Source: Rudaea sp.
Lineage (GTDB): Bacteria > Pseudomonadota > Gammaproteobacteria > Xanthomonadales > Rhodanobacteraceae
Length of the DNA: 64,000 bases
Assembly: GCF_047601565.1 (NCBI RefSeq)
Contig: NZ_JASGIY010000001.1
Span: forward strand, 3,126,999 to 3,190,998
Reading direction: 5' to 3'
Each line of letters starts with the position of its first letter. The first letter of the stretch is position 1. Under the pieces are notes generated by a model. That model had not been told where the DNA came from. It was given only the letters and a program-made list of their open reading frames with translations, and made no database searches. Shown here in pieces: positions 491-43,747 of this stretch. Made by a program: the position numbers and the translations under genes.

Positions 491-498
491 GTTTCGCC

Positions 499-1929
499 TC
501 ATAAACAAATGGAAAAACCAATCACGTTGCCGTCCAGAAATTGTGACGGGTCACGCCTCGACGCCTTGCACAAAACACCTGCAACCGCGTTCGCCAAGTC
601 GTCATGCGAACCGCGCCTGTGGTCGATACTGTCTTTGCCAGCGCGCGCCGTGCGCCGCTCAAGGCCGATTAGTTGCTGCGCCAGCCGGGGGTTATCCAGC
701 AATCGCGCCTTGCCGCTGTTCAGCAGCGGTAGCAGATTCAGATATAGATCACTGCGCACCATGTCGGCGACGGTGTATACAATGTCGCGTTTTGCAAATT
801 GTTCGCGCGGCCACTCGCCCGCATAACGGTCGCCGTACACCACGCGGATGCCGTACCGCTTCAGGTCATGTGCGAATTCGTCGACCACGGCTTCGGGACT
901 GAAGGGCGGCTTCACTTCGCGCACCATGTCCAAGATGATGCGGTCGTCACGCCTGTGCGCAATCGCCATTGTGAAACTATCCGCACTGCCGCCGCTCGGG
1001 TCGACGAAACCAAAATAACGAATACTCGCCTGCGGCTCGCGTTCGTGGATGCCGGTATCGGTGCAGTCCTTGATGACCTCGCGGCGCACGAACTGCTCAA
1101 CATCCGTGCGGAATAGCGCGCCATACTCTGCCGCTGCACTCTGCGGATCTCGTTCAGTGGCATCGTCAATGACCCGCTGCGGGACGGACGGGTTCATGTC
1201 CCGCGTCGCGGACTGCCACACAAGAACCGGCGCGCCGTCCTTGCCGTGGTACTTGTCGTGCGCGTCCCATAAAGTGCCCTTGCGCGCGTAAGGCGAACTG
1301 GCGCATATCAGCATAGCGCCCGGAATCGTCGCCATGCCCGGACGGATCGCGTTCAATATCTCGCTGTCTGGATCGGCCGCGTCGTCGCCCGTCGGCCAGA
1401 ATGCAATTTCGTCGGCCAATACTGCGCCGAAGGTGTAGCCGCGCGTCGCCCGGCTCGATGCCGTTGTGACTTCGATAACCGTGCCGTTCGTGAACTCGAA
1501 ACCTTCGGCAGTCTCGGACTTCACAATGCGTTTCACCATGGGAATGCCCTGCACCATGCCCGTGACGTAACGCATGATCGTGCGCGCCTGCTTTCGATCC
1601 GCAGCAAGTACTGCGATGGTTGCGACCTCGCCTGGTTGCAGATGTTGGCGGTACGTCCTGAAGCAAGCCAGCCAGACAGCGCACAACGCCATTACAAACG
1701 ATTTACCGGCACGCCTGCCGCACACCAACCACGCCTCGCCGAACGCGCTTGTAGGCGCGCTGGTGCGGCCTGTGTGCCGTTGGTAGATCGCCAGCATGTC
1801 GGCGTCCATTGGCAGGCCGAACAATGCGGCAAGGAACGCACGCCACGCCGTCCAGTCGCCGCGCGCAAACCACGGTCCGAACAGTTTCGGATCGGCGATT
1901 GCGTCAAGGATCGAAACGGATCGCTTCAT
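499..1929 (-). CDS. terL: Terminase large subunit
   Basis: Walker A GRRAGKS, Walker B VLADE, C-terminal nuclease motifs FVDPSGG and HDDLANA. Confidence 0.85.
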   Translation of the reverse strand: MKRSVSILDAIADPKLFGPWFARGDWTAWRAFLAALFGLPMDADMLAIYQRHTGRTSAPTSAFGEAWLVCGRRAGKSFVMALCAVWLACFRTYRQHLQPGEVATIAVLAADRKQARTIMRYVTGMVQGIPMVKRIVKSETAEGFEFTNGTVIEVTTASSRATRGYTFGAVLADEIAFWPTGDDAADPDSEILNAIRPGMATIPGAMLICASSPYARKGTLWDAHDKYHGKDGAPVLVWQSATRDMNPSVPQRVIDDATERDPQSAAAEYGALFRTDVEQFVRREVIKDCTDTGIHEREPQASIRYFGFVDPSGGSADSFTMAIAHRRDDRIILDMVREVKPPFSPEAVVDEFAHDLKRYGIRVVYGDRYAGEWPREQFAKRDIVYTVADMVRSDLYLNLLPLLNSGKARLLDNPRLAQQLIGLERRTARAGKDSIDHRRGSHDDLANAVAGVLCKASRRDPSQFLDGNVIGFSICL

Positions 1930-2333
1930 GCCTCGCCGTTCAAGTATTCGTGCAGGCTCGGCGTCACGTCGCGCGGCACACGATCCACGCCCAGCGTTTC
2001 GAGAAAACGGCGCTGCGCGTTTGCCAGTCGCGCGAACAAGTCCAAGTCAGCAGGATCGGGTTCGCCGCCGCGCTCGCGTGTCTGCGTCAAGCGGCCTTCA
2101 ATGGCGAGTAGTTCAACCTCGAACGCAGTGCAGCGTCGGATCAGCAGGCGTTGCGGCTCGCTGGCCCGATCTTCGCCGCCAACGTGATCCGTCAACGCGC
2201 TGGCCGTGTCGCGGTACAGGCGCGCCCACAACGAACGTCCGTCAATGCCCGGCAAAAGTGCGCGGCCATTGGTAAGGCGCGCGCGCGTTGTGGCGGCTTT
2301 CGGCTTGCGATCAGGTTGCGTCATGCCTGCCAT
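1926..2333 (-). CDS. Putative terminase small subunit
   Basis: ~135 aa helical protein (GIDGRSLWARLYRD...) coupled to terL by an ATGA overlap; start codon uncertain. Confidence 0.55.
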   Translation of the reverse strand: MAGMTQPDRKPKAATTRARLTNGRALLPGIDGRSLWARLYRDTASALTDHVGGEDRASEPQRLLIRRCTAFEVELLAIEGRLTQTRERGGEPDPADLDLFARLANAQRRFLETLGVDRVPRDVTPSLHEYLNGEA

Positions 2334-2685
2334 TGTCCCGGACACATACCCGGACATGAAAGTACATTGCGCGGACAAATGTAATGATATCAATGATATT
2401 TGTGATAATAACAGGGGATTGATCGTCCTTTTTGAAAATCGGACGCCAGCGGCACGGCTGTATACTTTTTAGCGTTTTGCGTCTCAAAATGCGTGAGACA
2501 GCAACCCGTATCCAGCTTCACCGAACACAATGCAGGTGAACCGATCAGGTCGGCGTCCGGTTCGCGGCCAGCGTCACCAGCACCAGCCACCAGCCAGAGC
2601 ACGATCAAGAACACCAGCCAGAGCACAGAAGCCAGAGCGCAGAGCAAGATCAAGAGCGCGCTACGCTTGGTATATATAGAAAGGT

Positions 2686-2809
2686 ACACGGTAGGCGTGT
2701 TAATCGAAGGCCGAAAAAGTGGCTGACTGACACGGCAGGCGTGTTAATTCAGGGGGCGAAGTTCGGCAATTAACACGGTAGGCGTGTCAGATTGACACGG
2801 TAGCCGTGT
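2686..2809. repeat. Four 15-bp ACACGGTAGGCGTGT-type repeats (putative iterons/origin)
   Basis: Copies at 2686, 2730, 2773 and 2795; adjacent TATATATAGA and CCAGCCAGAGCAC repeats. Confidence 0.75.
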
Positions 2810-3236
2810 TGGCGTTCGTGTTTTCGGCTGCGGCGATTCGTGACTTCCATGTGCCGCTCGCGACACGAGTAGCGCGCACGTCCAGCTTGCCGTCGCACTC
2901 GTCGATTGGCAGCCACGTCAACGCGAAAAGGCTGCACTTGTGCAGGCCGCCTTGTCGCGTCGGTTCGATCAGGCCGGACTCCAATAGTTCACGTTGCGCG
3001 CGAAAGAGCGTGTCACGCGAGCGCCAACCCAGCGAGCGCATGATTCGCCAAGCGGTAGCCAGGTCGCCGTTATTGTTGCCTCGGTATTGCGAACCCAGGT
3101 CGCACAACAATTTGACAGCGTGCGCAGACAGGCCGCGATAGGACGGCGCGGCCATGACGGCATGTGGCAGCGCGAAGAATCCGCCGCCGTCAGCACGTCC
3201 CTTGTGCTTGCGGCGGTCGCGTTTCTTGAGGCTCAT
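2787..3236 (-). CDS. Helix-turn-helix protein, putative replication initiator
   Basis: GGFFALPHAVM...LSAHAVKLLCDL...NNGDL pattern resembles phage winged-helix Rep N-termini; lies next to the iterons. Confidence 0.55.
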   Translation of the reverse strand: MSLKKRDRRKHKGRADGGGFFALPHAVMAAPSYRGLSAHAVKLLCDLGSQYRGNNNGDLATAWRIMRSLGWRSRDTLFRAQRELLESGLIEPTRQGGLHKCSLFALTWLPIDECDGKLDVRATRVASGTWKSRIAAAENTNANTATVSI

Positions 3237-4237
3237 TCCATGCCCTCCTCGCCGCCGCCGTTGTCGTCCTCGTCTTGGGTGAGCCACCGTTTTAGTTGGT
3301 CGCGCTCGTCCAGTTCGGCGTCAAGTGCTTGGTGAAAGGCGTCCATATTGATATTCGCCTTGATCGCGTCCGTTACCAGCGCGGCCAACAGGTCAGGCGG
3401 CAGTGCTTCGGCCTGTACCGTCTCGCCGTGAAAGTTGCGGCGGTCGGTATCTTTCGGCGGCGCGGTCAACAACCCGTACTCGGCGATGTGTTCCGGCAGT
3501 ACGGCCACGCGGCGAAACTCCACCGAGCCGCCCATGTCCGAGATGAATGCTCGAATGTCCTCGTCCAGTGAGCCGAACACATGCACGCCGCTCGGATCGT
3601 GGTCGCCGACGTGCAGCACCAGCGCGTTGCCCCATGACGAGAATTTCTCCGCCATGTTGTGCTTGACGGTCACGGAGTCGAAACCGCCGCTCGAATAGAC
3701 GGGGATCGAATACTGGTTGCCGACACGCTCAAGTTGCGGTGCCATGCCTTGCGCTTCGCACCACAAGACAACGCGGCGCGGCTGTCCGCGTTGTCTGTCG
3801 ATCCGGTATTTGCTGGCTGTGTGGATGATCGCTCTACGCGCCTCGTCCACATTGTTCCAACCAACATCATCGGCGACATGAAAGCCGTCGTCGCGGATTG
3901 AAGAAAACGGGATCATTCGTGCGCGGCGAGCACGATTCAGCGTCTCCAGCAAACGATCATAGGCGGCCTCGGTTTTCTCGTAGTCGATTGTTCCGACAAG
4001 CCGGTAAAAAATCTGCCGGGCGGTCAACGGCAGAAAACGTTTGTACTCGATCAGTACGGCTCCGATGCGCTCGACAAGTTCACGGCTTGCCGCTTGTGGA
4101 CGCCAGTCGATAAAACCGCGCGGCCTGCCGTGAATTGCTTTGGGGAGTGCTGTATACTTGTTCGCGCCAGTGTTGAAGTTTGCGGCCTCGGCGTTCGCAG
4201 CGTCGGGGCCGTGCTGTTTCTGGGGATTAGCTGCCAT
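3233..4237 (-). CDS. Spo11/topoisomerase VI-A-like winged-helix plus Toprim protein
   Basis: LTARQIFYRL (TxRxxxY motif), VVLWCE, SSGGF and HVGDHDPSG (Toprim E and DxD). Confidence 0.7.
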   Translation of the reverse strand: MAANPQKQHGPDAANAEAANFNTGANKYTALPKAIHGRPRGFIDWRPQAASRELVERIGAVLIEYKRFLPLTARQIFYRLVGTIDYEKTEAAYDRLLETLNRARRARMIPFSSIRDDGFHVADDVGWNNVDEARRAIIHTASKYRIDRQRGQPRRVVLWCEAQGMAPQLERVGNQYSIPVYSSGGFDSVTVKHNMAEKFSSWGNALVLHVGDHDPSGVHVFGSLDEDIRAFISDMGGSVEFRRVAVLPEHIAEYGLLTAPPKDTDRRNFHGETVQAEALPPDLLAALVTDAIKANINMDAFHQALDAELDERDQLKRWLTQDEDDNGGGEEGME

Positions 4238-4487
4238 CCGCTGCGCCCTCCGTGGCCTTGCTCTCTGTAATCAATGCCGCGGCAAGAGTCAGCGCAAGCC
4301 GTGCGACGCCGTTCAAGCGCGACGCCAGCAATTCCAGCTTGTCCGGCGACGGACGCGAAGCCGCCTCCCAAATCATTCCGGCGACGTGATCGGGCAAATC
4401 TGCGAGTTGGCGGCGCAAAACTTCGAGATCGGGCGCGCAGGGTGCGTGCGTGCCGTACACGCGGCGCATGTGGTCGGCGGCGATCAT
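4227..4487 (-). CDS. Hypothetical protein
   Basis: Overlaps both neighbouring genes in an operon-like arrangement. Confidence 0.5.
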   Translation of the reverse strand: MIAADHMRRVYGTHAPCAPDLEVLRRQLADLPDHVAGMIWEAASRPSPDKLELLASRLNGVARLALTLAAALITESKATEGAADGS

Positions 4488-4699
4488 GCGGCCACCTCGC
4501 GCTGCGAATCGATCCACGCGATAACGTCGGCGCGACGGTACAGGATGCGACCGTGCATGCGGATCGCGGGCGGTGCCGTGCGCTTCCAGCGCCAGCGGCG
4601 GATCGTGCGGGTAGTGACGCCGAGTTCAGCGGCGAGTGCGGCTATCGTGAGATAGTCGGCGAGGATCGGCGTAGCCGATGCGGTGACAGGTTGTGACAT
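4484..4699 (-). CDS. AlpA/excisionase-type HTH protein
   Basis: YLTIAALAAELGVTTRTIRRWR...GRILYRRADVIAWI. Confidence 0.8.
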   Translation of the reverse strand: MSQPVTASATPILADYLTIAALAAELGVTTRTIRRWRWKRTAPPAIRMHGRILYRRADVIAWIDSQREVAA

Positions 4700-4777
4700 T
4701 GTGTGTGCTCCGGTGTAGTACCGGATACGCACACTATGCGCATGGGTTGCCCGTGCCGAGATAGCCTGCGCGCAGCG

Positions 4778-4803
4778 CCTAGACGCTGCGCGCAGCGTCT
4801 AGG
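4778..4803. promoter_or_regulatory. Perfect 26-bp palindrome upstream of alpA/xis
   Basis: CCTAGACGCTGCG-CGCAGCGTCTAGG, with a partial tandem copy at 4766-4782. Confidence 0.5.
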
Positions 4804-5302
4804 CTCCGCGTAGCCATTTGCGGACTGTGCTGAAAGGTCGGTTGACGCGCAGCCCGATCATTTCCGCCGCATTGTCCTTATTCTTGAACTTCGCGCGCTC
4901 GGCTTTGTAGATGCGCAACACGTCGGCTTTGTCCGCTTTATCGGCGGTATGTGATGCGTGAGCGGCATACTTCACTACTTCACTCAACATCTTTTCTGCG
5001 CGCCCAAGCGCGGCGACGTACATCCCTGCGTACAGCACGCACTCGATGGCCGTGTCGTCATTGCCGGCAAGCCAATACTTACGCGCGGAGTCAAGCAAGC
5101 GAAGCGCGCAGCTCGCAACCTCTTTTTGCTCATCAAATGCTACGCCTCGTTTTGTCGCTTTGCCGTCTATCTCACCCACAAGTGTTTCCGACAAACGTAT
5201 GGATAGGGTTTGCAAATGGGCTTTGTCCCATTGCGCCCATGTGCGCGTGCCGGACGCGCCCGAAGGCGCGCCCTTGCTCTTGGTCGTCCGCTTTGTTGCC
5301 AT
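4799..5302 (-). CDS. Hypothetical protein with possible C-terminal HTH
   Basis: 167 aa; C-terminus NAAEMIGLRVNRPFSTVRKWL. Confidence 0.55.
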   Translation of the reverse strand: MATKRTTKSKGAPSGASGTRTWAQWDKAHLQTLSIRLSETLVGEIDGKATKRGVAFDEQKEVASCALRLLDSARKYWLAGNDDTAIECVLYAGMYVAALGRAEKMLSEVVKYAAHASHTADKADKADVLRIYKAERAKFKNKDNAAEMIGLRVNRPFSTVRKWLRGA

Positions 5303-5307
5303 GCGAG

Positions 5308-5559
5308 TTACGCCTGCTCGCGGAAACGAATCAAGTCTGTCGCCTCGAACCCGAATCGTTTAGCGAGGCTTGAACAACGCTCGTTGTCCGTCTCGCTTCC
5401 TATGACAAGGTAGGTTGGGCCGTCTGCGCGCTGCTCGAATCCGCCGGTCTGCGGCCAATTCGCGCCCGTCAGCCGCTTATCGTCGGGTCGGCAAATGAAC
5501 ACTCTGCGATCAGAAAAATCGCCGTCAAACGGCGCGGTGTTACTCTCTTTCGTAGCCAT
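5308..5559 (-). CDS. Hypothetical protein
   Basis: 83 aa with a GAGG RBS, preceded by a 13-bp-stem hairpin at 5588-5620. Confidence 0.5.
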   Translation of the reverse strand: MATKESNTAPFDGDFSDRRVFICRPDDKRLTGANWPQTGGFEQRADGPTYLVIGSETDNERCSSLAKRFGFEATDLIRFREQA

Positions 5560-5645
5560 GATGAAGTCCTCTTCTTCGTTGTGGTGAGGCTCGCCAGCAT
5601 GTAGGAGATGCTGGCGAGCCGCTTACCGGCACATGCCGGATTCGG

Positions 5646-6956
5646 TTACGCCTTGCGCTTGATCGGTGTCACGCTGGCGTCGGTGCCGGTGACGAGCCGG
5701 TGCAGTGCTTCGAGTGCCGCGCGTTTTTCGTCAAGATAGTCGTGCTTGTCATAGTGCCGCACCTGCACGCCGCCCAGTCCGTGCGATTGCAGTTGCCCGC
5801 GTATCTCGCGCGAAACACCAAGCGCGGCGAGCCGAGTTTCTACCGTGCGCCTCAAGTCGCCGATGGTGAACCTGCTTTCGATCTCGCCCGCATCCTGCAT
5901 CGCGGTCACAACCGGACACAGACGGTTGTGTAGCACGTCATAGCCCGCAGGCGTCTTGCCGCCGTCGATACTGAAAAGGTAGTCGCCTTTACCGCGCAGC
6001 GTCTCTAGCGCGTCCTGCGCGGATTCGATCAGCGGCACGATATGGATGCGCGGCTTCTCGCGCTTGCCCTTCGGATCGCGCAGGCGGATCGCCTTCGCGT
6101 CGCGGTCATAGTCGGCGACGGTGACGCGCGCCAGTTGCTGCACGCGCTGCCCGCCGGTCAGAAGGTGAAGCCGCAGCAGCGCACCGTCCGCGCCGTTCAT
6201 GGCCTCGATGCGACGCCAGTAGCTGCGAAGCTCGGCAATGGATAACGCGCGCTCTCGCGTTCCGCCAGTACCGCCGTCAACGGTCGGCAGTTCGGCCATT
6301 GGATTCGATCGCAAACCTAGAACGCGCAAAGACTGCGGCGCGCTCGCGTCCAGTCTCGCACGCACGGCGGCGCTGTATGCGGCCCGCAGGTAGCTTCGCA
6401 GCTTGCCCGCGCTGCGCGCCTTGCCAGCCTGCACCAGCGGCGCAAGGATCGTCACGCCGTCGTCGGGCTGGATATCTGCGGCAGGTGTCGCCCATAGCTC
6501 CGCGTGCGCGCGCATTACGTGATTCTCTGCCACGTCGCGGACGTTGCCCGCAGACACCTTGCCTTGCGCTTCAAGATGATCGGCGTAGGCCAGCAGTAGT
6601 GCACCAAGCGTTTGCGTCGCGACTTTCTGCGCGCGCTGCGCGCGCTCGACCTTCTCTTCGCGCTTGCGCTCCTTGTCGGCAAGCGGGTCGCCACCTAGTG
6701 CGACCTCGGCTTTGAGCTTGTGCGCCCGCTCGCGCGCTGCGGTGATCGAAAGGCCCGGATGCGGCCCGACGGTGATACGCCGCTCCTTGCCGTCGACGAA
6801 GTAATTGATGACGAAAGCCGCAGCGCCGTTCGGCGTCACGCGCAAGCCGAAACCCTTCGGTGCCTTCGCGTGGTCGTCGTAGAAGATGACGTTGCGGTCG
6901 GTGCCCTCGATGATCTTCGCGCGGATGAACGACTCTGTAATTGTATACTTTGCCAT
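5646..6956 (-). CDS. int: Tyrosine integrase with arm-binding domain (P4-like)
   Basis: N-terminal GFGLRV...FVINY arm domain; catalytic GQR, K, DLRRT, HGL and Y (RHYDKHDY). Confidence 0.93.
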   Translation of the reverse strand: MAKYTITESFIRAKIIEGTDRNVIFYDDHAKAPKGFGLRVTPNGAAAFVINYFVDGKERRITVGPHPGLSITAARERAHKLKAEVALGGDPLADKERKREEKVERAQRAQKVATQTLGALLLAYADHLEAQGKVSAGNVRDVAENHVMRAHAELWATPAADIQPDDGVTILAPLVQAGKARSAGKLRSYLRAAYSAAVRARLDASAPQSLRVLGLRSNPMAELPTVDGGTGGTRERALSIAELRSYWRRIEAMNGADGALLRLHLLTGGQRVQQLARVTVADYDRDAKAIRLRDPKGKREKPRIHIVPLIESAQDALETLRGKGDYLFSIDGGKTPAGYDVLHNRLCPVVTAMQDAGEIESRFTIGDLRRTVETRLAALGVSREIRGQLQSHGLGGVQVRHYDKHDYLDEKRAALEALHRLVTGTDASVTPIKRKA

Positions 6957-7081
6957 GTCGCAAGCCCTCGGTTTGAGTCCCGAACCCGGACACGACACGA
7001 ACATGAATCGGCAGGTGATAATCTATCCCTTGCCCGAATCGGCGTGAAAATTTCGCCTCTCGCCGATTAGTCACCTGTTTC

Positions 7082-7148
7082 TGTGTCCGGGTCTGTGTCC
7101 GGGAAATTGTGCGTAATCTGTGTCCGGCATTGTCCGCGCCGTGTCCGG
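7082..7148. repeat. TGTCCGG repeat cluster, probable integrase arm-type sites
   Basis: Copies at 7082, 7094, 7119, 7131 (partial) and 7141; inverted copy at 6986; between int and att. Confidence 0.65.
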
Positions 7149-34853: not shown

Positions 34854-34930
<77 letters not shown>

Positions 34931-34977
34931 ACAAAAACAATAGCTTACGTGTTTTCGCCTTAATAGCCATGCCGCGC

Positions 34978-35002
34978 GTAAGTGCACTGTAAGTGCGGTA
35001 AG
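34978..35002. repeat. GTAAGTGC repeats (arm-type sites, left end of element 2)
   Basis: Copies at 34978 and 34989; the same motif occurs at 43522, 43547 and 43558. Confidence 0.7.
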
Positions 35003-35170
35003 AAACCGCATATAGCCTGTCAAGGTCGGCGTGCGCCGACGCGGGGCTCACGAAAAGCAAACCCCCGCATTTCGCGGGGGCTCGATCGAATCGCTGCCGC
35101 TGGAATCTTGGGGTCGTCAGCTTCGATTGCCGGGGTTGTTGCGGACACTGGCCGGCTTGTCCGGCCGTAC

Positions 35171-37057
35171 TCAGGATGCCGACAAAGTCGCCTTGACGAT
35201 GCCGCGAAAATCCGTGAAGCCCGCCGCGAAGGCGTGTCGTACTTTCCAACTCAGAGCGTCTTGCCGCGGCTCGATGATTTCCTCGAAACTTGGAGAGTCG
35301 TCGACAATCGCGATTTCGCCCGTGCCGATCGCCTCCGAATCCGCGACGAGATAGAACACGTCGGGATCGCTCAGGCGTGGTTCGGCGATGACAGTGAGGG
35401 CGGACAGCCAAGCGGGCGTTGCGGCTTCGGCGCCAGCAATCGCCGTGTGCGTGGTCGAACTGGCAACGAGGATTTCCGCCTCGGTCTCGCGTTCGGGCGC
35501 AACGATCAGCGTGCGCGGCGTCAGGTTCAGCAGACCGCCCCCGACGTTGACCTGTCGACGCAGCTTCGCGCGTGCCGCCCCGAGTGCCGCCGCAGTCAGT
35601 GGCTTGCCTGTGCCAGTGACGGCAGTGACTGTATTGTTCCTCGTCGAGTCGAACAATGCGATGCCATCCGCCAAATTCGGACCCGCCAGAGAAGCCGACT
35701 TGAGAGAGCCATAAATCGAATCGGCTTCAACGCGCATCGCAGCCTGCCCGAGGCTACGGCCAAGGCCCACGAATGCCCCCAGGTTATCGGCGAGCGTGCT
35801 TTCCCAGGAAAGGGACACGATGCGACCGAATTTCACGGGCACGAGTGTGGTCTTGTCTTCGGCCAAAACACCGTTTGTGTACTCCCCAAGTTCGGCAACC
35901 TGCTCCAGGTCGGGAGCGCTGCCAAGAATCACGCGCGACTGTGCGCGGAAATCACTGGCCGCCGACACAACACACCATTGGCGATGCGTTGCCTGCTCGT
36001 TCTCCATGCCGTTCCGCAGTGCCTTGTTCAAGGTGTCGCCCAGCAGCGCGGGAAAGTCGCTCGTGCTCATCGCTGCCCGAAATACCGCGTGCGGCAATTC
36101 GCCAACGTGCGTTCTGCCGCTTTGACTCAGGCAGGCGCGCGCCATGTCCAGCACCGTCATGCCGCGCAAATCGCGCGCCGCGGCGTGTGGCTTGCGCAAC
36201 GTCAACCCTGCGCGCAACAGAAGCGCATCGCTCGCGGCTTGGATGAAGTCGCGCGACCGGCCAACGCGCGGCCACTCGGTGACGTCCATGCTGCGGTGGT
36301 TGAGATGGCCGCCTGCGGCGCGATCGGCCGCCGCAAGCAAGTTGAGCAAGTTCGTCCGGAAATCTTCGACGGCCACGCCATCGGCGATGGCTTGCAGTGC
36401 GATATCGTCGACGTTCGCGACGTTGCTGCGATAGCGCGCCGCAAGGGCTTGAATAGCGGCCCCGCGCGAACGCTCAGCGGAAACTTCCGGTGATGCGTTC
36501 GCGGTGAGCGCCGGCGCGGGTGCTGCCGCGGGTGCTTCGACAGCGGTAGTGTTTTGGTCGGTCATGGTGATACTCCTGTAGAGGCTTGCGCCGGGATCGG
36601 CGGGAACGGAAACGACGCTGGTCTCGAACGGCTCCCAGCGAGTGACGAGAACGGCCGGGCCGCCCTCATATGCGATGGCGGATTGTTCGTGCGCGACATA
36701 CCCGACTGACAGGCTCCGCACGATGCCCGCACGAATGTCCGGCCACAATTCGCACGCGCGGGCACTCTGGCCTAGCACGACGTCACCACGCAGGGCAGCG
36801 CCGTCCAAGCGCAGGTTTTCCACAATGCCGATGTTCAGCGCCCCGGCATCGTGCTGCTCGAGCAGCGGCAACGGGGCACGCGCTAAGTCGACGGCATCGG
36901 GCGTGTGCGCCAGAATTTCCAGATACCCGTCGCGTGCCACGGGATATTCCGTGGAGATAATGGCGGGGATTCGCTGCGCCACGTCATCGCCAGCCGCCGT
37001 GTCCAGAGTCAGCGTGCGGTGAAGCAATGCGGGCCGGTGCGCTTGGTTCGTGCTCAT
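35171..37057 (-). CDS. Prohead protease-major capsid protein fusion
   Basis: N-terminal PLLEQHD...RSLSVGY...ETSVVSVPAD protease; capsid part with STSDFPALLGD and FGRIVSLSWE. Confidence 0.82.
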   Translation of the reverse strand: MSTNQAHRPALLHRTLTLDTAAGDDVAQRIPAIISTEYPVARDGYLEILAHTPDAVDLARAPLPLLEQHDAGALNIGIVENLRLDGAALRGDVVLGQSARACELWPDIRAGIVRSLSVGYVAHEQSAIAYEGGPAVLVTRWEPFETSVVSVPADPGASLYRSITMTDQNTTAVEAPAAAPAPALTANASPEVSAERSRGAAIQALAARYRSNVANVDDIALQAIADGVAVEDFRTNLLNLLAAADRAAGGHLNHRSMDVTEWPRVGRSRDFIQAASDALLLRAGLTLRKPHAAARDLRGMTVLDMARACLSQSGRTHVGELPHAVFRAAMSTSDFPALLGDTLNKALRNGMENEQATHRQWCVVSAASDFRAQSRVILGSAPDLEQVAELGEYTNGVLAEDKTTLVPVKFGRIVSLSWESTLADNLGAFVGLGRSLGQAAMRVEADSIYGSLKSASLAGPNLADGIALFDSTRNNTVTAVTGTGKPLTAAALGAARAKLRRQVNVGGGLLNLTPRTLIVAPERETEAEILVASSTTHTAIAGAEAATPAWLSALTVIAEPRLSDPDVFYLVADSEAIGTGEIAIVDDSPSFEEIIEPRQDALSWKVRHAFAAGFTDFRGIVKATLSAS

Positions 37058-37472
37058 GCTCGAACTGTGCGCCGGAAGAATTGGCAATGTGTAGGCTTTC
37101 GACTGCCAACTTTCCCGCTGACGACGAGGCGAGGATTTCCCGCAATTGGCGATCGGCTGGAATCGGCCACAGCCCGCGAGCGTGGAGCACCAGGCCTCCC
37201 GCCAGGCCAAGCCTGCGCGGCGCTTGGCCGCGGGCGGACAACCGCGAGAGCATCGCATCGATGCGCAGGATTTCATGGGCACGCGTCCGGATTGTGCCGC
37301 CGATCAGCCGCCCGGCCGCGCACAGGTTCGCATCGCGTTGCTGGCGCAACCCGGCGCCGCCGGAAAGCGAAGCTATCCGCTCGATGGTCCATACGCCGAC
37401 ATCCAACGGAAGTGGCTGGCGGCCTTCGACGTGCGCGCGAAGGCGTGCGAGCATGGAATCGAATTCGCCCAT
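36984..37472 (-). CDS. Hypothetical satellite protein
   Basis: 162 aa ORF co-oriented with and directly upstream of the capsid gene. Confidence 0.5.
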   Translation of the reverse strand: MGEFDSMLARLRAHVEGRQPLPLDVGVWTIERIASLSGGAGLRQQRDANLCAAGRLIGGTIRTRAHEILRIDAMLSRLSARGQAPRRLGLAGGLVLHARGLWPIPADRQLREILASSSAGKLAVESLHIANSSGAQFEHEHEPSAPARIASPHADSGHGGWR

Positions 37473-37772
37473 TCAGTGCGATAGCATTCCGGTGCGCTTG
37501 GCGCCGATTGCATCAAGCCACGTCCGTAAATCCGCGCCATCCAGCAGTGCAATGCCGGCCCCGGCAAGAATGCTGACGAGAAGGTCGGGAGTGATTGGAC
37601 AATACATCGACCAGACGCAATCCGGGATGCGGTAGAACGCGCCGCAGCGATTGACTGGGCAGTATGTGATAAGCGTGTTTCCGTCCGCGCTGCGAATCGT
37701 GCGCGCCGGGCTCACCAGTGTTTCATGGCTTGGCGCCTTCGGTTCGTAGATTTTCATCGTTTGGTCAGACAT
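37473..37772 (-). CDS. Hypothetical protein
   Basis: 99 aa with a GGAGG RBS. Confidence 0.55.
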   Translation of the reverse strand: MSDQTMKIYEPKAPSHETLVSPARTIRSADGNTLITYCPVNRCGAFYRIPDCVWSMYCPITPDLLVSILAGAGIALLDGADLRTWLDAIGAKRTGMLSH

Positions 37773-38039
37773 TTTGTTTCCTCCAATTCAGTGCACGCCC
37801 GCGCCCGCGTTGTTGAAGTGGAAAGCACGCAAAATGCTCGACGCCAAGCTCTCCGGCGTGATGCTCGACGAAAACCAGCATGCGCCAATCCCGGAATCGA
37901 AGACAGATATAACCCCCTGGGCGCCAATCCGTGACTGCGGACAGAATGAGGTCGTCTTCCCCGCAACCTCCGCCGCCGAAAAGGACCCGTCCCGCACCAA
38001 GGCCGCCCGCGTCCAATTCCACCGCGACCTCGCCGAGGC

Positions 38040-38251
38040 TGTGACTGACCGCTTGTGACGACTTGTTCCAGCACAGAAGGGATATTTCCTTGCGCGCGCG
38101 GGGGCGCACGCCCGTCCATGCGTGCGGGTGCGCACACGTAAGGAAATGGGCAAAAATGCCGTCACATCCTGTACAAGCCCCATGGCACAAGGGTTTGCGG
38201 CCTGTTTTGCTGTCGTCACAGCATCCGTCACAGCCATCACAGCCGTCACAG
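38040..38251. repeat. GTCACAG iteron-like array (putative origin of element 2)
   Basis: Copies at 38161, 38215, 38227, 38236 and 38245; inverted TGTGAC copies at 38040-38060. Confidence 0.6.
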
Positions 38252-38272
38252 GATAGATTGGCCGCCCGGCGA

Positions 38273-40576
38273 TCATGCCGCCTCCGCAAGATATTGTTCG
38301 GAGGCGGTCTGCCAAGCCTCGACGCACTCTCCCAGCCATATCGTTTCCTGAGCGCCGGGCGGCATCCGATGCGCATCGAACAGCACGATCGAACGCATGG
38401 TATGCGCCGCGCGGGCGACGTATCGCTTGCGCTGCACTTCGATACGATGCCGGCGCCTCAGCACGGCGCGCGTCTTCGGCAGCGTCGTCGACCGCAAGCC
38501 GTTCTGTGCGCAGAATGCTTTGTATACTTTGTACACTTCTTCCATCGGCGCCGGAACCAGCTTGAGCGCCCCGAGTTCCTGCGCTTGCAGCGCGTAGTAG
38601 AAGCGCGAAACGGTGTCCAGAGAGTCGTCGACCAGGTCGGCCTTCGCGTTCGTGTACGGCGGTGGCGTCGCTTCGTTGAAGTCGCCGAGGTCGAGGGTCA
38701 GCAGGTAGTCGTGCAAGGCCTCGACGCCGCCGGCTTGAATCTCCGCGGCGACCTCGCGGTAAAACTGCGGCTCGCGCTTCTCTGGCGTGAAGATCACGCA
38801 ATGCCGGCGGTCGTCCTCGTCGATCGCAACGGGTGTGCCTTCGTTCGACAGGAACACCATGTTCACGTGGTTGCGCTCGACGTAGGCCGGCATGCCCTTG
38901 GGATTGATGCGGATGGTCGATCCGGTGATGAAGGCCTTCAGCCGGTTCTTGACGTGAAACACCTCGGTTCGTGCGATGACCTCGTCCGCGATCAGGAACA
39001 GCATGCGCGAAGCCCAATCGTTGAACTTGTCCTCGATCGCGAGCTGGTCGAGCACGCGCCCATAAGGGCCGTAGATCGATAGCACGGCCTCGAAGAAAAG
39101 GTTCTTGCCGGTACCCTGCGGGCCGTGCACGACGAGTGCGGTTTTCATCTTCGCGCCCGGATGTTGAATCGGGAACGCGAGCCAGCGCAGCACCCATGCG
39201 AAGAGGTCATTCGGCCGCAAGTCGCCGCTGGTCATGTGCCGCAGCACGTCGAGCAGCTTTTCGCAGGCCCCTGCGTGCGGCGACGTCGGCCAGCCTGCCC
39301 ACAGGTTGCAGGTGATGGCGGCATCGTGGCCGGTCGGATCGAAGCCGACCTCTTCGGGGCGCACCATCTTCCGCTCGGGCGATTCCATCCAACTGCGGAA
39401 AAGCTCGCGATGCGCGCAGGCGTCGCGCAGATCGGAAAGCGCAAGGCGTCGGCGCTGCGCATGATCGAAGGCGATGCCTTGGCCGCCGTAGACCAACGAG
39501 AACCGCGGCAGCAACTCGTCGACCGTCTGGAACGGTCGCATCGCATCATCGGCGCCGGCCTTCGCCTTGACCATCAAGGTCTGCGACCATTTCAGTGCGG
39601 CAAGCTTGGCATAGATCTGGACGCGCACGGCTTGCAGGCCTTCGGCCAGGTGCAAATCGTTGAAGTCGGTCAGCTTGACCTTGCGCTTGTCGAACGCCTC
39701 GCGTCGCGCCGCCTCGTCGGCGAAGATCGGCTTGATCCAAGCGCCGCCCGACTCCGCGGCGGCGGTGCTGGCTGCGGTAACGCCCGGATTGCCTTCGGTG
39801 AAAGCGTCGTCGTCAGCGCAGATCAGCAGGCGCACGTTCCGATATCGCTTGCGCAAGGCGGCGGTGACCGGCGCCAGATTGCCTGCGTCGAAGGCGACGG
39901 CCGTCGGAATCTGCGTCGCCTCGTACAGGCTCGCCGCGGTCGCGTAGCCTTCGGCGATCAGGACCAAGCCGCCCGGCGCCGGCATGCCGAGAAGATGGAA
40001 GCGTTCTTTTTTCACCAAGCCGCGCGGCCAGAATTCTTTTTCGGGCCGATGGTCCGCCTTCGCCCGCTTGCGCGACCGGATCACTTGCAGACCCCAAATT
40101 TTCCCGTGCACGTCGAGCATCGGCACGACGAGCGCGCCGGACGGAGAGAATCGCACGCCATGCGCGCCGATGCCCTTGCGCGCCAAGTATTCGCTGTCGC
40201 CGGACTCGCTGCACTTTGTCCATGCCGCGCGTGCGCGCTCCGCGGCGCGCTTGGCCTCGCCGGCGCGGACGCGTTCGGCGGCTTCGCGATCCTCACGCGT
40301 CCGCGCCTTGATCGCCGCGCGTTGTTCCTGCGTCAAATCGAACTTCTTCAGTTCGATTTTCTGCGCGCCGTTGTCGGCCCCATGCCAGACGCCGAACGAG
40401 CCGAAAATCAGCGTGTCGCCGCGCGACGTGACGACCTCATGCAGCGAGTACCAGCCGCGCCGCTCGCGGTCGCCCTCGACCTTGCAACGCACGAGCCGGC
40501 CGGTTTCGAGTGTGTCGACGAGCAGGCCGGCGCCGCGCAACTGGTCGAGCACGCTGGCATGGTTCGCCGCCGTCAT
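38273..40576 (-). CDS. Toprim primase fused to an SF3-type (DUF5906-like) helicase
   Basis: IAEGYATA, ICADDD, TDFNDL; Walker A GPQGTGKN and LIADE. Confidence 0.88.
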   Translation of the reverse strand: MTAANHASVLDQLRGAGLLVDTLETGRLVRCKVEGDRERRGWYSLHEVVTSRGDTLIFGSFGVWHGADNGAQKIELKKFDLTQEQRAAIKARTREDREAAERVRAGEAKRAAERARAAWTKCSESGDSEYLARKGIGAHGVRFSPSGALVVPMLDVHGKIWGLQVIRSRKRAKADHRPEKEFWPRGLVKKERFHLLGMPAPGGLVLIAEGYATAASLYEATQIPTAVAFDAGNLAPVTAALRKRYRNVRLLICADDDAFTEGNPGVTAASTAAAESGGAWIKPIFADEAARREAFDKRKVKLTDFNDLHLAEGLQAVRVQIYAKLAALKWSQTLMVKAKAGADDAMRPFQTVDELLPRFSLVYGGQGIAFDHAQRRRLALSDLRDACAHRELFRSWMESPERKMVRPEEVGFDPTGHDAAITCNLWAGWPTSPHAGACEKLLDVLRHMTSGDLRPNDLFAWVLRWLAFPIQHPGAKMKTALVVHGPQGTGKNLFFEAVLSIYGPYGRVLDQLAIEDKFNDWASRMLFLIADEVIARTEVFHVKNRLKAFITGSTIRINPKGMPAYVERNHVNMVFLSNEGTPVAIDEDDRRHCVIFTPEKREPQFYREVAAEIQAGGVEALHDYLLTLDLGDFNEATPPPYTNAKADLVDDSLDTVSRFYYALQAQELGALKLVPAPMEEVYKVYKAFCAQNGLRSTTLPKTRAVLRRRHRIEVQRKRYVARAAHTMRSIVLFDAHRMPPGAQETIWLGECVEAWQTASEQYLAEAA

Positions 40577-40721
40577 TTCACTAACTCCGGGCCGCACTGA
40601 CTACGCGGAAAATGCGGCTTTTTTACCCGCGAGGGTACTCGCCAAAAAGAACCTAAGCGCCGGCTAACTGAAATGGAAACTGCGCGTCGTCGCGTCGGCT
40701 TTGCAATCGCGGGGAGCGGGG

Positions 40722-41102
40722 TCATGCCATCGGTTCCGCTTCATCAAGTTCGATGCCAGCGGACAAATCGCGCAGGCAATCGGCGCGTTTTTCGAGTAGC
40801 GTCAGCGGCTCGTCAAGATCGGCCGCGGCTTTGCGGCCCAAGTAACTCATGCATTCGGCCAAGCGCTCGATGCGGTCGGTGAGCGCCGCACATTCCGGAC
40901 TGTCGCAACTGCCAGTACCATGCACCCGCTGCGCAGCGTCGCAAATGCTGTCCGCGATGGCGGCTGTCCAGTTGACCAGCCCAATCGTTGCGCGCAGATC
41001 GTCGCACGCGCGATCCATGACGCGCGCGGCCATTACGATAGCGCCGCCTTTGAGGTCGTCGTTCGTGGTTGGCGCATGTGCGCCAGTCGTGGTAAATTTC
41101 AT
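40722..41102 (-). CDS. Hypothetical protein
   Basis: Preceded by the hairpin AAGCCCGCGCA...TGCGCGGGCTT and a GGAG RBS. Confidence 0.5.
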   Translation of the reverse strand: MKFTTTGAHAPTTNDDLKGGAIVMAARVMDRACDDLRATIGLVNWTAAIADSICDAAQRVHGTGSCDSPECAALTDRIERLAECMSYLGRKAAADLDEPLTLLEKRADCLRDLSAGIELDEAEPMA

Positions 41103-41171
41103 TTCGTTGTACTCCAAGCCCGCGCACACGGTCGCCAAACCTGCGCGGGCTTTTTCGTTGGCGGGAAAGGG

Positions 41172-41438
41172 TCAGGCCGCGATGGGTTCGCGGCGCTCGA
41201 AGCGGCGAGCTTGTTCGTATTCGCGCGAGCGATAGACGACGGGCCTGCCCGAATCGCTTTGCTTTTCGAGGAGATCGATCCAAGCCTCGACGGCGCTGTA
41301 CCGCGCGAAGCGGCGGCGGCCGACCAGGAACGTTTTGAGATGCCCTTCTTCGATTGCCCGGTAAATGACCGGAATGGACTCGCCGGAGATGTCGGCGATT
41401 TGCTGAAGGCTCACCTTCAGCGCAGTGTGGGATTTCAT
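41172..41438 (-). CDS. AlpA/excisionase-like DNA-binding protein
   Basis: VSLQQIADISGESIPVIYRAIEEGHL...VGRRRF...VEAWI. Confidence 0.72.
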   Translation of the reverse strand: MKSHTALKVSLQQIADISGESIPVIYRAIEEGHLKTFLVGRRRFARYSAVEAWIDLLEKQSDSGRPVVYRSREYEQARRFERREPIAA

Positions 41439-41529
41439 GGGAGCCCCGCGTTATGCCGCGGAATGCGGCGCGGGACGGATACTAGACAAGCGCGCTATTG
41501 GCTGTCTGTATAGATAAATCTGGATTAAG

Positions 41530-42060
41530 TTACACAGCAACGAACAGCTTGTAGCAGCGGATTGCTTCCTCGACACTGACGTGTCTGGCGGTCGCTACTG
41601 TACGGGCCGCATTCCGTTGCGATTTACCTTCTGCAACGAGCCCGGCCATATGCTGTCCAATAAGCCATTGCTTTGTGAGTCCGGCAAAGTCTTGTCCCGC
41701 AGCCGGCGCCCCCTTTCTCACCCGATTCCAGCCAAACGCTACATTGGGTTCCTGCCCCTCCGCAATCAAGGACAGGACATGCTCCAAATACAAATGGATA
41801 TCAGGGAACGCCTGCGCGCTTTCCACGACAGACACCCCCATATCGGCCAGCGCTTTAATGCAATTGCGGTCGCCTCCCAGCGCAGCTTGTGCAATTCCAT
41901 CGTTAGCACCGCGCTTCTTCATCTCGTGCTCAAACCGCTCACGTAGCGATGGCCCATCCTTTCTTTTTATACTTTTACACATTGCAATTATCCGGTAAAA
42001 TTTTGCGAACCGTTCTTTGACCAACTTTGTATTTTCTCCGAATGCTGCGAATGGACTCAC
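41530..42060 (-). CDS. Hypothetical protein, AT-richer than its surroundings, possible C-terminal HTH
   Basis: 176 aa; ends EGKSQRNAARTVATARHVSVEEAIRCYK; start uncertain. Confidence 0.55.
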   Translation of the reverse strand: MSPFAAFGENTKLVKERFAKFYRIIAMCKSIKRKDGPSLRERFEHEMKKRGANDGIAQAALGGDRNCIKALADMGVSVVESAQAFPDIHLYLEHVLSLIAEGQEPNVAFGWNRVRKGAPAAGQDFAGLTKQWLIGQHMAGLVAEGKSQRNAARTVATARHVSVEEAIRCYKLFVAV

Positions 42061-42283
42061 CTGCCGCGAGGGCTGCGCGTATCTCTGCTACGGGCAGATC
42101 GCGCACGCGTGCGAAGATGTAGATGTCGGTCGACGAGTATTCTTCGGTCAGGTAGGCAATCACGGCGTCTACAACTTGGCGGATGCCGTTCCTGTCGGTA
42201 TTGAGTCGAGCTGCAGCACCGCGCGTCAATTCTTCTGCAAGCTCTTCTTTGTGGAAACGCTTGCGCGGCGTGTTGCGGCTCAC
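41975..42283 (-). CDS. Mor/C-like transcription activator
   Basis: GTG start overlapping the int TGA; EEYSSTDIYI...GESIRSIRRKYKVGQRTVRKIL. Confidence 0.55.
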   Translation of the reverse strand: MSRNTPRKRFHKEELAEELTRGAAARLNTDRNGIRQVVDAVIAYLTEEYSSTDIYIFARVRDLPVAEIRAALAAGESIRSIRRKYKVGQRTVRKILPDNCNV

Positions 42284-43497
42284 GGCTTCCCCTTTGCTTT
42301 CGTCAGCGTGGCAACTGCCGCGGCCTTGTGCTCCGGCGCCAAGTGCGCGTAGCGCTGCGTCATCTCGAAATCGGAATGCCCCAACAGTTCCTTGACGGTA
42401 TACAAATCCACTCCGGCCATGACGAGCTTGCTCGCGAAGTGATGCCGAAGATCGTGGAACCGGAAATTGTCGAGCTTCGCCAGTTCGACCAGTGTCGCCC
42501 AACTGCGATTGACATTGGTCATGCGCTCGCCGGTCGGGCCGGGAAAGACCAGGCCGGTTCCTTGGCCCGATTTGCGCCAACGCCTCAGCACGTCGAGCGC
42601 ATCCGCATTCAACGGCACGTAGCGCGTCTTGCCGGACTTCGCGGTATCGAACCGGACCGTGAGCAGGTTGCGCGCCAGGTCGACCGCTTCCCACGTCAGG
42701 GAGAACAGTTCGCCGCGGCGCAGGCCGGTGTTCATCGCGAGCAGCACCAGCGGCTGCAGGTGGTCGCAGAATTCATCCTTGTCCCACATGCGCCGGCCAT
42801 CGCCGCCGCGCTCTCTGCACCATGCGTTGCCGCTCAAACGGTGCGTGCGCATCGCCGTCTCGCGATTCTTCAGCGCGGACAGCAAGGCCTTTTCCTCGTC
42901 CGGTGACAAAAACCGCACGCGACCGTTGTCTTCACCCTTGGCGCGCTTCACGCCGACCAATGGATGCGTTGCCAGCATGCCCCATTCGACCGCCTTTGCG
43001 ATCGACGCCTTGATGCGGATCAGGTCTCGGTTCACCGTCGCGGGCTTGATGCCGGCTTTGAGCCGCTCGACCTTGGTTTTCTCCACTGCCCAAGCTGTCA
43101 CGTCACCCAAGGGTCGCGCATAGAAGTGCCCCCACACGGATTTGATCGCCGCCACGGTTGCGGCGCCGGCCTTGCGCTCGACCTTGGCCCAAGGCGCGTA
43201 GTGCTTGTCCATGAACTCGCCGAACGTCGCCGCCCTGGCCTTCGGCTTCGTGCGCTCCCCCGTCTTTGCGTAATGCCCGAGCTTTACCTTGGCTTGCGTC
43301 CGTGCACTTTCGACAGTAGTAACCGGGTATGGGCCGATGCGCTCGCGTACACCTCGCCGCAGATCGATGTAGAACGTCTTCACGCCGCTGGGCTGCACGC
43401 GCAGCAGCAAGCCGATTATCTCGGTGTCGCGGATTTCGTATGGCGACGCGAACGGCACGGCGCCCCCGACCATCTTCGCAGTGAGTTTCGCCTTCAT
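42280..43497 (-). CDS. int: Tyrosine integrase
   Basis: Arm domain GLLLRVQPSG; TGLRRGEL, AKSGK, FHDLRH, LLGH and TQRYAH. Confidence 0.94.
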   Translation of the reverse strand: MKAKLTAKMVGGAVPFASPYEIRDTEIIGLLLRVQPSGVKTFYIDLRRGVRERIGPYPVTTVESARTQAKVKLGHYAKTGERTKPKARAATFGEFMDKHYAPWAKVERKAGAATVAAIKSVWGHFYARPLGDVTAWAVEKTKVERLKAGIKPATVNRDLIRIKASIAKAVEWGMLATHPLVGVKRAKGEDNGRVRFLSPDEEKALLSALKNRETAMRTHRLSGNAWCRERGGDGRRMWDKDEFCDHLQPLVLLAMNTGLRRGELFSLTWEAVDLARNLLTVRFDTAKSGKTRYVPLNADALDVLRRWRKSGQGTGLVFPGPTGERMTNVNRSWATLVELAKLDNFRFHDLRHHFASKLVMAGVDLYTVKELLGHSDFEMTQRYAHLAPEHKAAAVATLTKAKGKP

Positions 43498-43690
43498 CGC
43501 GTAAATGCTCCCGTCAGTACGGTAAGTGCGGATGCCCATGCACGCCGTAAGTGCGTGGTAAGTGCATCAGGAGCTATTTTGCGATGTAACGCGGCATAAC
43601 GCAAGTTTGGGAAAATTCTTATAACTATTTGATTTTATTAGTATATATTTGATTCTGTTAGAAATTTTCCAGACGGGAAAATTAAGTTCT

Positions 43691-43731
43691 GGAGGTAGAA
43701 GTCGGATGTTCGAATCCTCTCACCCCGACCA
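43691..43731 (+). other. attR: duplicated 3' end of tRNA-Pro
   Basis: 41 bp with one mismatch to 34890-34930. Confidence 0.9.
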
Positions 43732-43747
43732 GCAACGGGAACGCGGA

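Follow-up and report, generated by a model that had tools for sequence, protein, structure and literature searches.

A probable PICI-type satellite in Rudaea with a protease-capsid fusion as its only recognisable structural gene

Introduction

Phage-inducible chromosomal islands (PICIs) of Gram-negative bacteria follow a plan of ordered zones, named Integration, Bro, Replication and Late, with an inward-facing integrase gene (int) and an origin of replication (ori) downstream of the primase gene (PMC10111431). Capsid genes are their commonest late genes, present in 21 of 29 reference Gram-negative PICIs (Tommasini, Mageeney & Williams 2023, PMC10111431), and "capsid morphogenesis" is among the PICI core components of SatelliteFinder (PMC10085698). 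That a satellite may have no structural gene other than a capsid gene is an established idea. Here we describe an element of this kind from a Lysobacterales-like gammaproteobacterial host, in a 64,000-nt stretch of the Rudaea sp. contig NZ_JASGIY010000001.1 (in the following called the window, to which all coordinates refer). We consider this locus, with a probability of roughly 0.7, to be an intact PICI-type satellite of a conserved lineage and not a remnant. The lineage is widespread and environmental, and is defined by a late cassette of two small genes, orf99 and orf162, and a gene for a protease-scaffold-capsid fusion.

Previous work on PICI capsid genes points in two directions. Deletion of the capsid gene of EcCICFT073 gave no relief of lambda interference, and the island's DNA was found packaged in phage-sized form (Fillol-Salom et al. 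2018, PMC6092414); according to a later paper, helper-assisted transfer does not require the capsid genes of PICIs. On the other hand, PmCI172 makes small capsids and has a capsid homologue (PMC6092414), and Ccm of SaPIbov5 is the one capsid homologue for which a redirection of capsid size has been shown (PMC8569155).

Comparison with described satellites

The window element shares with Gram-negative PICIs the small size (~9–20 kb), an int at one end that faces inward, a DUF5906 primase gene with an iteron ori just downstream, and nearly all genes on one strand. A putative regulator of the AlpA/HTH_17 kind is in the right position, with a sub-threshold score. Further shared features are the terminal late zone, in which the gene that encodes the major capsid protein (MCP) is the commonest gene, the use of tRNA genes or other specific attachment (att) sites, the lack of lysis genes and, as in the typical short forms, the lack of tail genes. 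Looking at the components by which PICIs are recognised, we found int at one end between att repeats and facing inward, a primase gene with iterons at its 3′ side, a capsid gene in the late zone, and no tail, holin, portal or head-tail connector genes. A small terminase subunit (TerS) or Rpp was not detected with Pfam, PHROG, NCBIfam, a six-frame search with a family hidden Markov model (HMM) or fold comparison. If the sub-threshold AlpA-like protein is counted, the element has four of the five PICI core components, judged from Pfam, PHROG and NCBIfam matches, and would be "Type B" in the scheme of PMC10085698.

The initial annotation of this DNA, made from the letters alone, had suggested a possibly distinct satellite family. 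This was overstated because the layout is that of the published Gram-negative PICI plan, and 21 of the 29 reference islands have a capsid gene.

Differences are found at the level of the individual genes. In EcCICFT073, a 351-aa capsid protein of the lambda-E type and a separate decoration protein are encoded after the primase, whereas the window element encodes a 628-aa S78 protease-scaffold-MCP fusion after two clade-specific genes. Compared with Gram-negative PICIs, it has no TerS or Rpp, no Bro-type gene and no C4/isrK RNA; for this P4-type immunity RNA, Rfam gave only sub-threshold chance matches. Its capsid protein belongs to a deep, almost satellite-only clade, in contrast to a recent capture from a helper phage. 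Comparison of the element's proteins by BLAST, with primase and MCP among them, gave no match to the stretch of EcCICFT073 that was fetched, which spans the early small genes through primase, MCP and late open reading frames (ORFs) and is without int and alpA.

SaPIbov5, a cos-type Staphylococcus aureus pathogenicity island (SaPI; PMC8569155), also has no TerS of its own, and its single structural gene is a helper capsid homologue that accompanies small capsids. It differs by its Gram-positive host, by a Ccm without fused protease and by its Stl-regulated backbone. Capsid-forming PICIs (cf-PICIs; Alqurainy et al. 2023) share the PICI-like front half and have their own HK97-fold capsid and prohead protease. 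They differ in that they also possess portal, head-tail adaptor, connector, TerS, large terminase subunit (TerL) and HNH genes, amounting to 11 core components, and steal only tails (PMC10085698), which agrees with the full head module ascribed to them in the initial annotation. None of these additional genes was found in the window element. The PICI-like tycheposons of Prochlorococcus and other marine bacteria resemble it in their size of ~10 kb, their location at tRNA genes, a tyrosine recombinase and a primase/helicase; they contain "either terS or MCP" as their sole gene for phage packaging and occur in viral-fraction metagenomes (bioRxiv 10.1101/2020.12.28.424599). Their integrase lineage and hosts are different, and the likeness is one of described features. 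The element does not fit the P4-like satellites, which are recognised by psu, delta, sid and epsilon genes and an alpha primase: it yielded no Sid, Psu or Delta matches in Pfam and PHROG, and the P4-family primase C-terminal model TIGR01613 matched weakly, with 23.9 bits compared to a cut-off of 108.7.

Fusions of protease, scaffold linker and HK97-fold coat are also known from phages (NF045541 and NF045540; RcKemmy gp9, LPPA33, mEp460 and Gifsy-2 types), represented here by a Rhodobacter phage (RcKemmy), a Pseudomonas phage (LPPA33) and a lambdoid phage (mEp460). A close phage source of the window capsid gene was not found, the best phage records being only 25–34% identical. In phages, the fusion gene always follows terS-terL-W-portal. 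The initial annotation had likened the window fusion to that of Gifsy-2; phages do possess protease::MCP fusions, but the Gifsy-2 type has a ClpP protease and the one in the window is of the S78/HK97 type.

Our literature searches brought up no specific account of a satellite family from Lysobacterales or environmental Proteobacteria that has a protease-capsid fusion. What appears to be undescribed is the capsid clade, deep and almost confined to satellites, together with the orf99 and orf162 genes that constantly accompany it and its spread in environmental Proteobacteria.

The protease-capsid fusion and its satellite-specific partners

The fusion protein of 628 aa (35171..37057, minus strand) consists of a prohead protease of the S78/HK97 type, a scaffold linker and the MCP. 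It matched Phage_capsid_4 (1.7e-38), Peptidase_S78 (1e-4) and phrog_4523, "major head and protease" (2e-120). The alignment to NF045541 runs end to end (3–630 of 634) and reaches 427.4 bits, under the cut-off of 525; on this alignment, the protein is of the NF045541 architecture in a diverged lineage. In accordance with the initial annotation, it was the only recognisable structural gene product by Pfam, PHROG and NCBIfam matches. The protease residues H69 and S117 were invariant in 34 homologues, and the dN/dS of the capsid gene was 0.1–0.3 within the clade, with dS being saturated. The capsid gene is intact and, judged from these values, under purifying selection.

Approximately 90 nt past the stop codon of the capsid gene, the promoter/terminator scan detected a strong terminator-like hairpin with a 12-bp stem followed by a T-run (35058..35084, minus strand), which likely is the end of the late operon. 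Spanning the capsid stop codon, we also noticed a match to the Rfam small RNA Proteo-phage-1 (35125–35188, minus strand), which is probably due to chance (23.7 bits compared to a cut-off of 42, E=0.81).

Upstream of the capsid gene lie two satellite-specific genes on the same strand, orf162 (36984..37472), conserved directly 5′ of the MCP gene in every clade member, and orf99 (37473..37772), conserved beside orf162. The 3′ end of orf162 overlaps the start of the capsid gene by 74 nt, and the stop codon of orf99 overlaps the start codon of orf162 (TGAATG). Across the inspected relatives, both are homologous and always located 5′ of the capsid gene, with identities of 31–36% for orf99 and 40–43% for orf162. 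For orf99, we identified 70 homologues of ~100 aa among 1.84 billion representative proteins.

AlphaFold2 models based on family alignments predicted an alpha/beta protein for orf99, a four-stranded sheet with helices (pLDDT 92), and for orf162 a six-helix domain at residues 1–122 (pLDDT 85) followed by a disordered tail over the region that overlaps the capsid gene. Foldseek found no PDB match at E<0.1 for either model and no BFVD match for orf162. Likewise, hhalign did not relate either protein to profiles of TerS, TerL, portal or MCP. From the fold and hhalign results we ruled out that orf99 and orf162 are decayed fragments of TerL, gpW or portal genes, and the models match no TerS, Rpp, gpW or scaffold structure. 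Where both genes lie, how they are conserved and that they are translationally coupled with the capsid gene suggests that they act together with the capsid protein. A role as size-determining or portal/coat-adapting factors is speculative.

Relatives of the element and phylogeny of the capsid protein

Homologues of the capsid fusion with 58–68% identity were present in metagenome assemblies, and the species-representative genome collection contained no homologue closer than 42%. We inspected the genomic context of every long-enough contig with a 58–68% homologue (L001, L003, L085/86, L087 and L088), of 41–49% homologues (L089, L090, L091, L005–L007 and L044) and of ClpP-type homologues with 49–57% identity (L176 and L177). 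In the inspected loci, the capsid gene ends a small element without portal or TerL gene, and wherever the contig reaches far enough upstream, this element opens with a tyrosine integrase gene beside a tRNA or tmRNA gene. All homologues of >40% identity with inspected context, including the ClpP::MCP proteins, were of the satellite type.

The order of int, regulators, replication genes and late cassette recurs in L001, L003, L085/86, L087, L088, L089, L090 and L176/177, in elements that sit at tmRNA, tRNA-Pro, tRNA-Leu and other sites. Their front halves are non-homologous, with differing integrases, regulators and replication proteins, and one relative has RecT instead. In total, the late cassette of orf99, orf162 and protease::MCP is common to more than 15 independent elements, between which the front modules are swapped.

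A total of 94 loci were tabulated by their matches to home-made HMMs of TerS, TerL, portal, int, primase, orf99, orf162 and MCP. Loci with contiguous terS-terL-portal-MCP were classified as phage-type and those with no TerL or portal gene within at least 5 kb upstream as satellite-type; the latter label therefore rests on the visible flank. The annotated phages RcKemmy and LPPA33 and a lambdoid E. coli phage also show the order terS-terL-portal-MCP. Of these loci, 78 were included in the MCP tree, comprising 40 phage-type, 31 satellite-type and seven undetermined ones. Both orf99 and orf162 are confined to the satellite-type group and were absent from all 40 phage-type loci.

The maximum-likelihood tree of the 78 MCPs placed the window protein in a clade of 18 with 100% support, consisting of 15 satellite-type, two phage-type and one undetermined locus. 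From its position in the tree, the window capsid clade is old. Over the whole tree, the satellite label requires at least seven changes, and hence capsid-only elements arose or exchanged capsid genes repeatedly.

One contig in IMG/VR, L180 (IMGVR_UViG_3300028430_000815; 10,492 bp), ends in a 141-bp terminal repeat and carries int, RecT, orf99, orf162 and ClpP::MCP, but no tRNA gene, terL or portal gene. An excised copy, circular or concatemeric, would be expected to give a contig of this kind on assembly.

Several further observations were made on the relatives. The IMG/VR contigs L180, L182 and L221 have terminal repeats of 127–141 bp, suggesting circular assemblies. L182 (9.5 kb) contains int and MCP only, and L221 (11.5 kb) contains int, terS, terL, portal and MCP, corresponding to a minimal capsid-forming element; many further contigs of 9.5–12.6 kb carry the latter combination. 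A large tape-measure homologue lies right after the capsid gene, with no other tail gene, in L088 (7522–9945), L008 (11890–14277), L176 (12178–14640), L177 (7280–10570) and L090 (10710–12332). These assignments are based on phrog_2335 (8e-48), the Pfam families TMP_2/TMP_3 and homology to the tape measures of the phage-type loci L025 and L038. A second orf99-like paralogue is located beside the tape measure in L088, L008 and L176, and L090 also has a Phage_cement_2 decoration gene. The deltaproteobacterial metagenome-assembled genome CAVRIC01 holds two satellites of the clade, L006 and L007, with MCPs 42% and 39% identical to that of the window; each carries TerS and orf162.

Absence of head genes and the distribution of TerS

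Searches with Pfam, PHROGs and NCBIfam revealed no portal, TerL, TerS, tail or lysis genes in the element, and the home-made HMMs for TerS, TerL and portal, built from related loci, gave no match either. In a six-frame search with the TerS HMM and filters switched off, the best hit (E=0.1) fell on the helix-turn-helix (HTH) of the AlpA-like protein, and no TerS remnant was detected. The initial annotation, which had listed no portal, TerL, tail or clear TerS gene, was correct in this respect. It had also raised the possibility that one of the small ORFs might be a canonical TerS. For the window copy, a hidden TerS among the small ORFs is excluded by the family searches, the six-frame HMM search and the negative structure and hhalign comparisons; approximately half of the relatives, though, carry a TerS of the lambda Nu1 type. 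The refuting condition named in the initial annotation thus applies in part to the family, but not to this copy.

In these relatives (L001, L003, L085/86, L087, L005/L091, L006, L007, L044 and L010), the TerS of ~200 aa is encoded directly upstream of orf99. An HMM built from it recovers the TerS annotated in RcKemmy (2e-43), that of the lambda type in a CFT073 prophage, and the gene that comes first in LPPA33; the gene itself matches phrog_57 at 2e-7. As TerS is present, these relatives hold all five SatelliteFinder PICI core functions. Clade members without TerS are L088, L089, L090, L008, L176 and the circular-type L180. Because such members recur, the window copy is not obviously defective. 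Its replication protein is unrelated to the 515–546-aa protein of the closest relatives, and a module swap therefore probably removed TerS. Lacking TerS, the window copy would have to rely on a packaging site recognised by the helper, as cos-type satellites do.

Integration site, regulators and replication module

A repeat search showed that the element is bounded by a 49-nt direct repeat (34886–34934 and 43687–43735, 46/49 identical, with a spacing of 8801 nt). The left copy (attL, plus strand; repeat family D1) coincides with the 3′ part of an intact tRNA-Pro(CGG) gene, the integration target (34854..34930, plus strand; ARAGORN, and 65 bits for Rfam tRNA). The right copy (attR, plus strand) is a displaced partial tRNA 3′ end with three mismatches. 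Crossover likely takes place in a 24-nt core of the repeat that is free of mismatches and extends from the T-arm to the 3′ end. The octamer GTAAGTGC was counted five times in the window (0.67 expected by chance; none of 100 shuffles reached five), and all five copies lie just inside the element ends. Two of them start at 34978 and 34989, 11 nt apart (34978..34996, plus strand), and three start at 43522, 43547 and 43558 at the int end (43522..43565, plus strand). By their placement, they are credible arm-type integrase sites.

All convincing genes of the element are located on the minus strand. The tyrosine integrase of 419 aa (42280..43539) faces into the element, matches Arm-DNA-bind_3, Phage_integrase and phrog_1, and keeps the HxxR and catalytic Tyr motifs. 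The integrase of the relative L003 is 49% identical and uses the same tRNA-Pro(CGG) target (L003 12742–12818) in the same orientation; L003 has an extra cargo ORF of 201 aa between capsid gene and att site. The int stop codon is overlapped (GTGA) by the GTG start of an ORF for a small HTH protein of 102 aa (41975..42283), which is weakly Mor-like (Pfam Mor, 13.8 bits, E=0.059, below cut-off); the ORF at the matching position of L003 reaches 25.1 bits. Next follows an ORF of 176 aa, or 150 aa from the ATG at 41982 (41530..42060), without Pfam or PDB-sequence match. A label as Mor-like on this orf176 falls on the wrong ORF, as the weak signal belongs to the 102-aa one. Downstream, in the position expected for PICIs, lies the gene for an AlpA-like HTH regulator or excisionase of 88 aa (41172..41438), which scored 23 bits for HTH_17 (cut-off 27), 9e-4 for phrog_66 and weakly for TIGR01764. 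Its similarity to the HTH_17 protein in the matching position of L003 is weak (31.6% over 38 aa, E 2.7e-05). No family match was found for the following orf138 (40722..41138).

The primase-helicase of 774 aa (38273..40597) has Toprim_3 and DUF5906/D5-like domains in Pfam and matches phrog_2249 over its full length (5.7e-152). An array of four iterons, CTGTGAYGR (38213..38251, minus strand; TRF and pattern search), starts 22 nt past the primase stop codon and is a putative replication origin; the motif occurs nowhere else in the window. Between this ori and the late cassette, there is a possible but uncertain ORFan of 74 aa on the plus strand (37834..38058). Its codon-position GC of 0.61/0.48/0.75 is coding-like, and it was called as a protein in the source genome; no homologue was found among 5.8 billion clustered proteins.

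These results bear out most of the initial annotation of this part, namely both att sites, the arm repeats at both ends, int, alpA (with the sub-threshold HTH_17 score given above), the primase-helicase and the iteron array. For the Mor-like gene, a weak signal is present, but the assignment does not reach the cut-off.

Proposed life cycle and alternative explanations

Based on this anatomy, we propose the following course of events. The element would be excised by the integrase, with the help of its arm sites and of the two HTH proteins (AlpA-like and Mor-like), and would then be replicated by the primase-helicase from the adjacent iteron origin. The late cassette would be expressed as one translationally coupled unit ending at the hairpin behind the capsid gene, as suggested by the gene overlaps and the terminator seen in the sequence. 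The fusion protein would process itself by its conserved His/Ser protease and then assemble, alone or mixed with helper coat protein, on the portal of a lambda-like helper with the head module terS-terL-W-portal-protease::MCP, probably into satellite-sized heads. Helper TerL would package the DNA, directed in the relatives by their own Nu1-type TerS; the window copy would carry a site recognised by the helper terminase in the cos-type fashion. As satellite-specific capsid partners, orf99 and orf162 may, speculatively, determine head size or adapt portal and coat to each other.

It is plausible that the fusion forms satellite-sized heads by assembling on a helper portal, with protease, scaffold and coat being united in a single polypeptide and conserved in this form; we hold this step tentatively, at somewhat below even odds. 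More doubtful, but possible, is the wider idea that the cassette is a satellite-specific "shell kit" long kept apart from phages, building a small shell on a stolen helper portal with orf99 and orf162 as adaptors or size determinants. If so, it would represent a "shell-only" stage, with classical PICIs, where everything is stolen, on one side and cf-PICIs, where only the tails are stolen, on the other, and would explain why capsid genes are the commonest late genes in Gram-negative satellites. Satellites with own shells on helper portals would bridge the capsid-stealing and the capsid-forming ones, and two new protein folds would join the capsid-redirection factors. If the element does not form own shells, it adds to the catalogue a further example of a known satellite type, from an under-sampled host group. 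The lineage is a cleaner test case for the role of PICI capsid genes, with a complete protease-scaffold-coat unit, purifying selection in an almost satellite-only clade and two satellite-specific proteins always alongside.

Several points weigh against an intact satellite that forms its own shells. In EcCICFT073, the only tested Gram-negative model, capsid gene deletion brought no relief and DNA was of phage size. The match to PICIs is architectural, as shown by the lack of a BLAST-level match to the fetched EcCICFT073 part. The AlpA-like and Mor-like assignments both score under curated cut-offs, L180 is taken as circular from a terminal repeat that is as long as an assembler k-mer, and the window copy lacks the TerS found in about half of the relatives and so could be packaging-defective. 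The main rival, which we regard as unlikely, is that the cassette serves mainly interference or defence: the fusion, orf99 and orf162 would co-assemble with or sequester helper head proteins and poison helper capsid assembly, while the element travels in ordinary helper capsids, possibly as multimers. The phage-sized packaging of EcCICFT073 despite its capsid gene (PMC6092414) and the reported dispensability of PICI capsid genes for helper-assisted transfer fit this explanation, four to five copies of the 8.8-kb genome would fill a ~40-kb head, and long-term purifying selection fits defence as well as a structural role. The same deletion in EcCICFT073, however, left lambda interference unrelieved (PMC6092414). 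An active protease, a scaffold linker and a full HK97-fold domain across a deep clade exceed the needs of a decoy, and in SaPIbov5 (Ccm) and PmCI172, satellite capsid homologues accompany the formation of small capsids.

Less likely again is a packaging-defective copy, stranded or rarely mobile, in which a replication-module swap replaced rep-terS by primase-helicase and ori. The nine listed relatives or pairs with a Nu1-type TerS upstream of orf99, the lack of even a remnant of it in the window and the unrelated replication protein argue for this, but six clade members lack TerS as well, one of them apparently as a free circle, all ORFs, att sites, arm sites and iterons are intact, and cos-type satellites without TerS are known to be functional (SaPIbov5, PMC8569155). 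A deletion remnant of a full prophage that kept int, the replication genes and one head gene, a possibility already named in the initial annotation, is very improbable. The capsid gene is phage-derived and placed in phages after terS-terL-W-portal; against this, more than 15 independent loci that differ in integrase, att site and host show the same compact layout, orf99 and orf162 as partners in the cassette are satellite-only, and the tree groups the MCP mostly with satellites. In addition, the element contains no pseudogenes and no head, tail or lysis fragments, and its int faces inward as in PICIs, unlike in prophages. We consider it just as improbable that the element is an autonomous, helper-free HK97-fold mini-virus without portal and tail, or an encapsulin-like particle-former, comparable to "twilight" HK97 elements. 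Metagenomes are reported to contain small elements that have int, rep and MCP and lack both portal and terminase (bioRxiv 10.1101/2025.06.18.659913), and circular contigs of 9–10 kb exist. The MCP, however, matches Phage_capsid_4, gpT and fused phage proteins and not encapsulin families, a phage TerS is encoded by half of the relatives and a tape-measure homologue by some, both being sensible only with a helper TerL, portal and tail, and the element encodes no lysis or entry function. We therefore retain the reading as a satellite, whose completeness, as claimed in the initial annotation, is borne out by the intact ORFs, att sites, arm sites and iterons and by the recurrent layout.

A second integrative element in the window

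A second integrative element occupies positions 1–7100 and runs off the left end of the window. It encodes a 476-aa large terminase (499–1929; phrog_2/phrog_9) and is not an obvious helper, since this protein is shorter than the ~600–700-aa TerL of the relevant phage-type loci. Its other genes encode a topoisomerase-like protein (3233–4237; phrog_6247), an integrase (5646–7004) and small ORFs.

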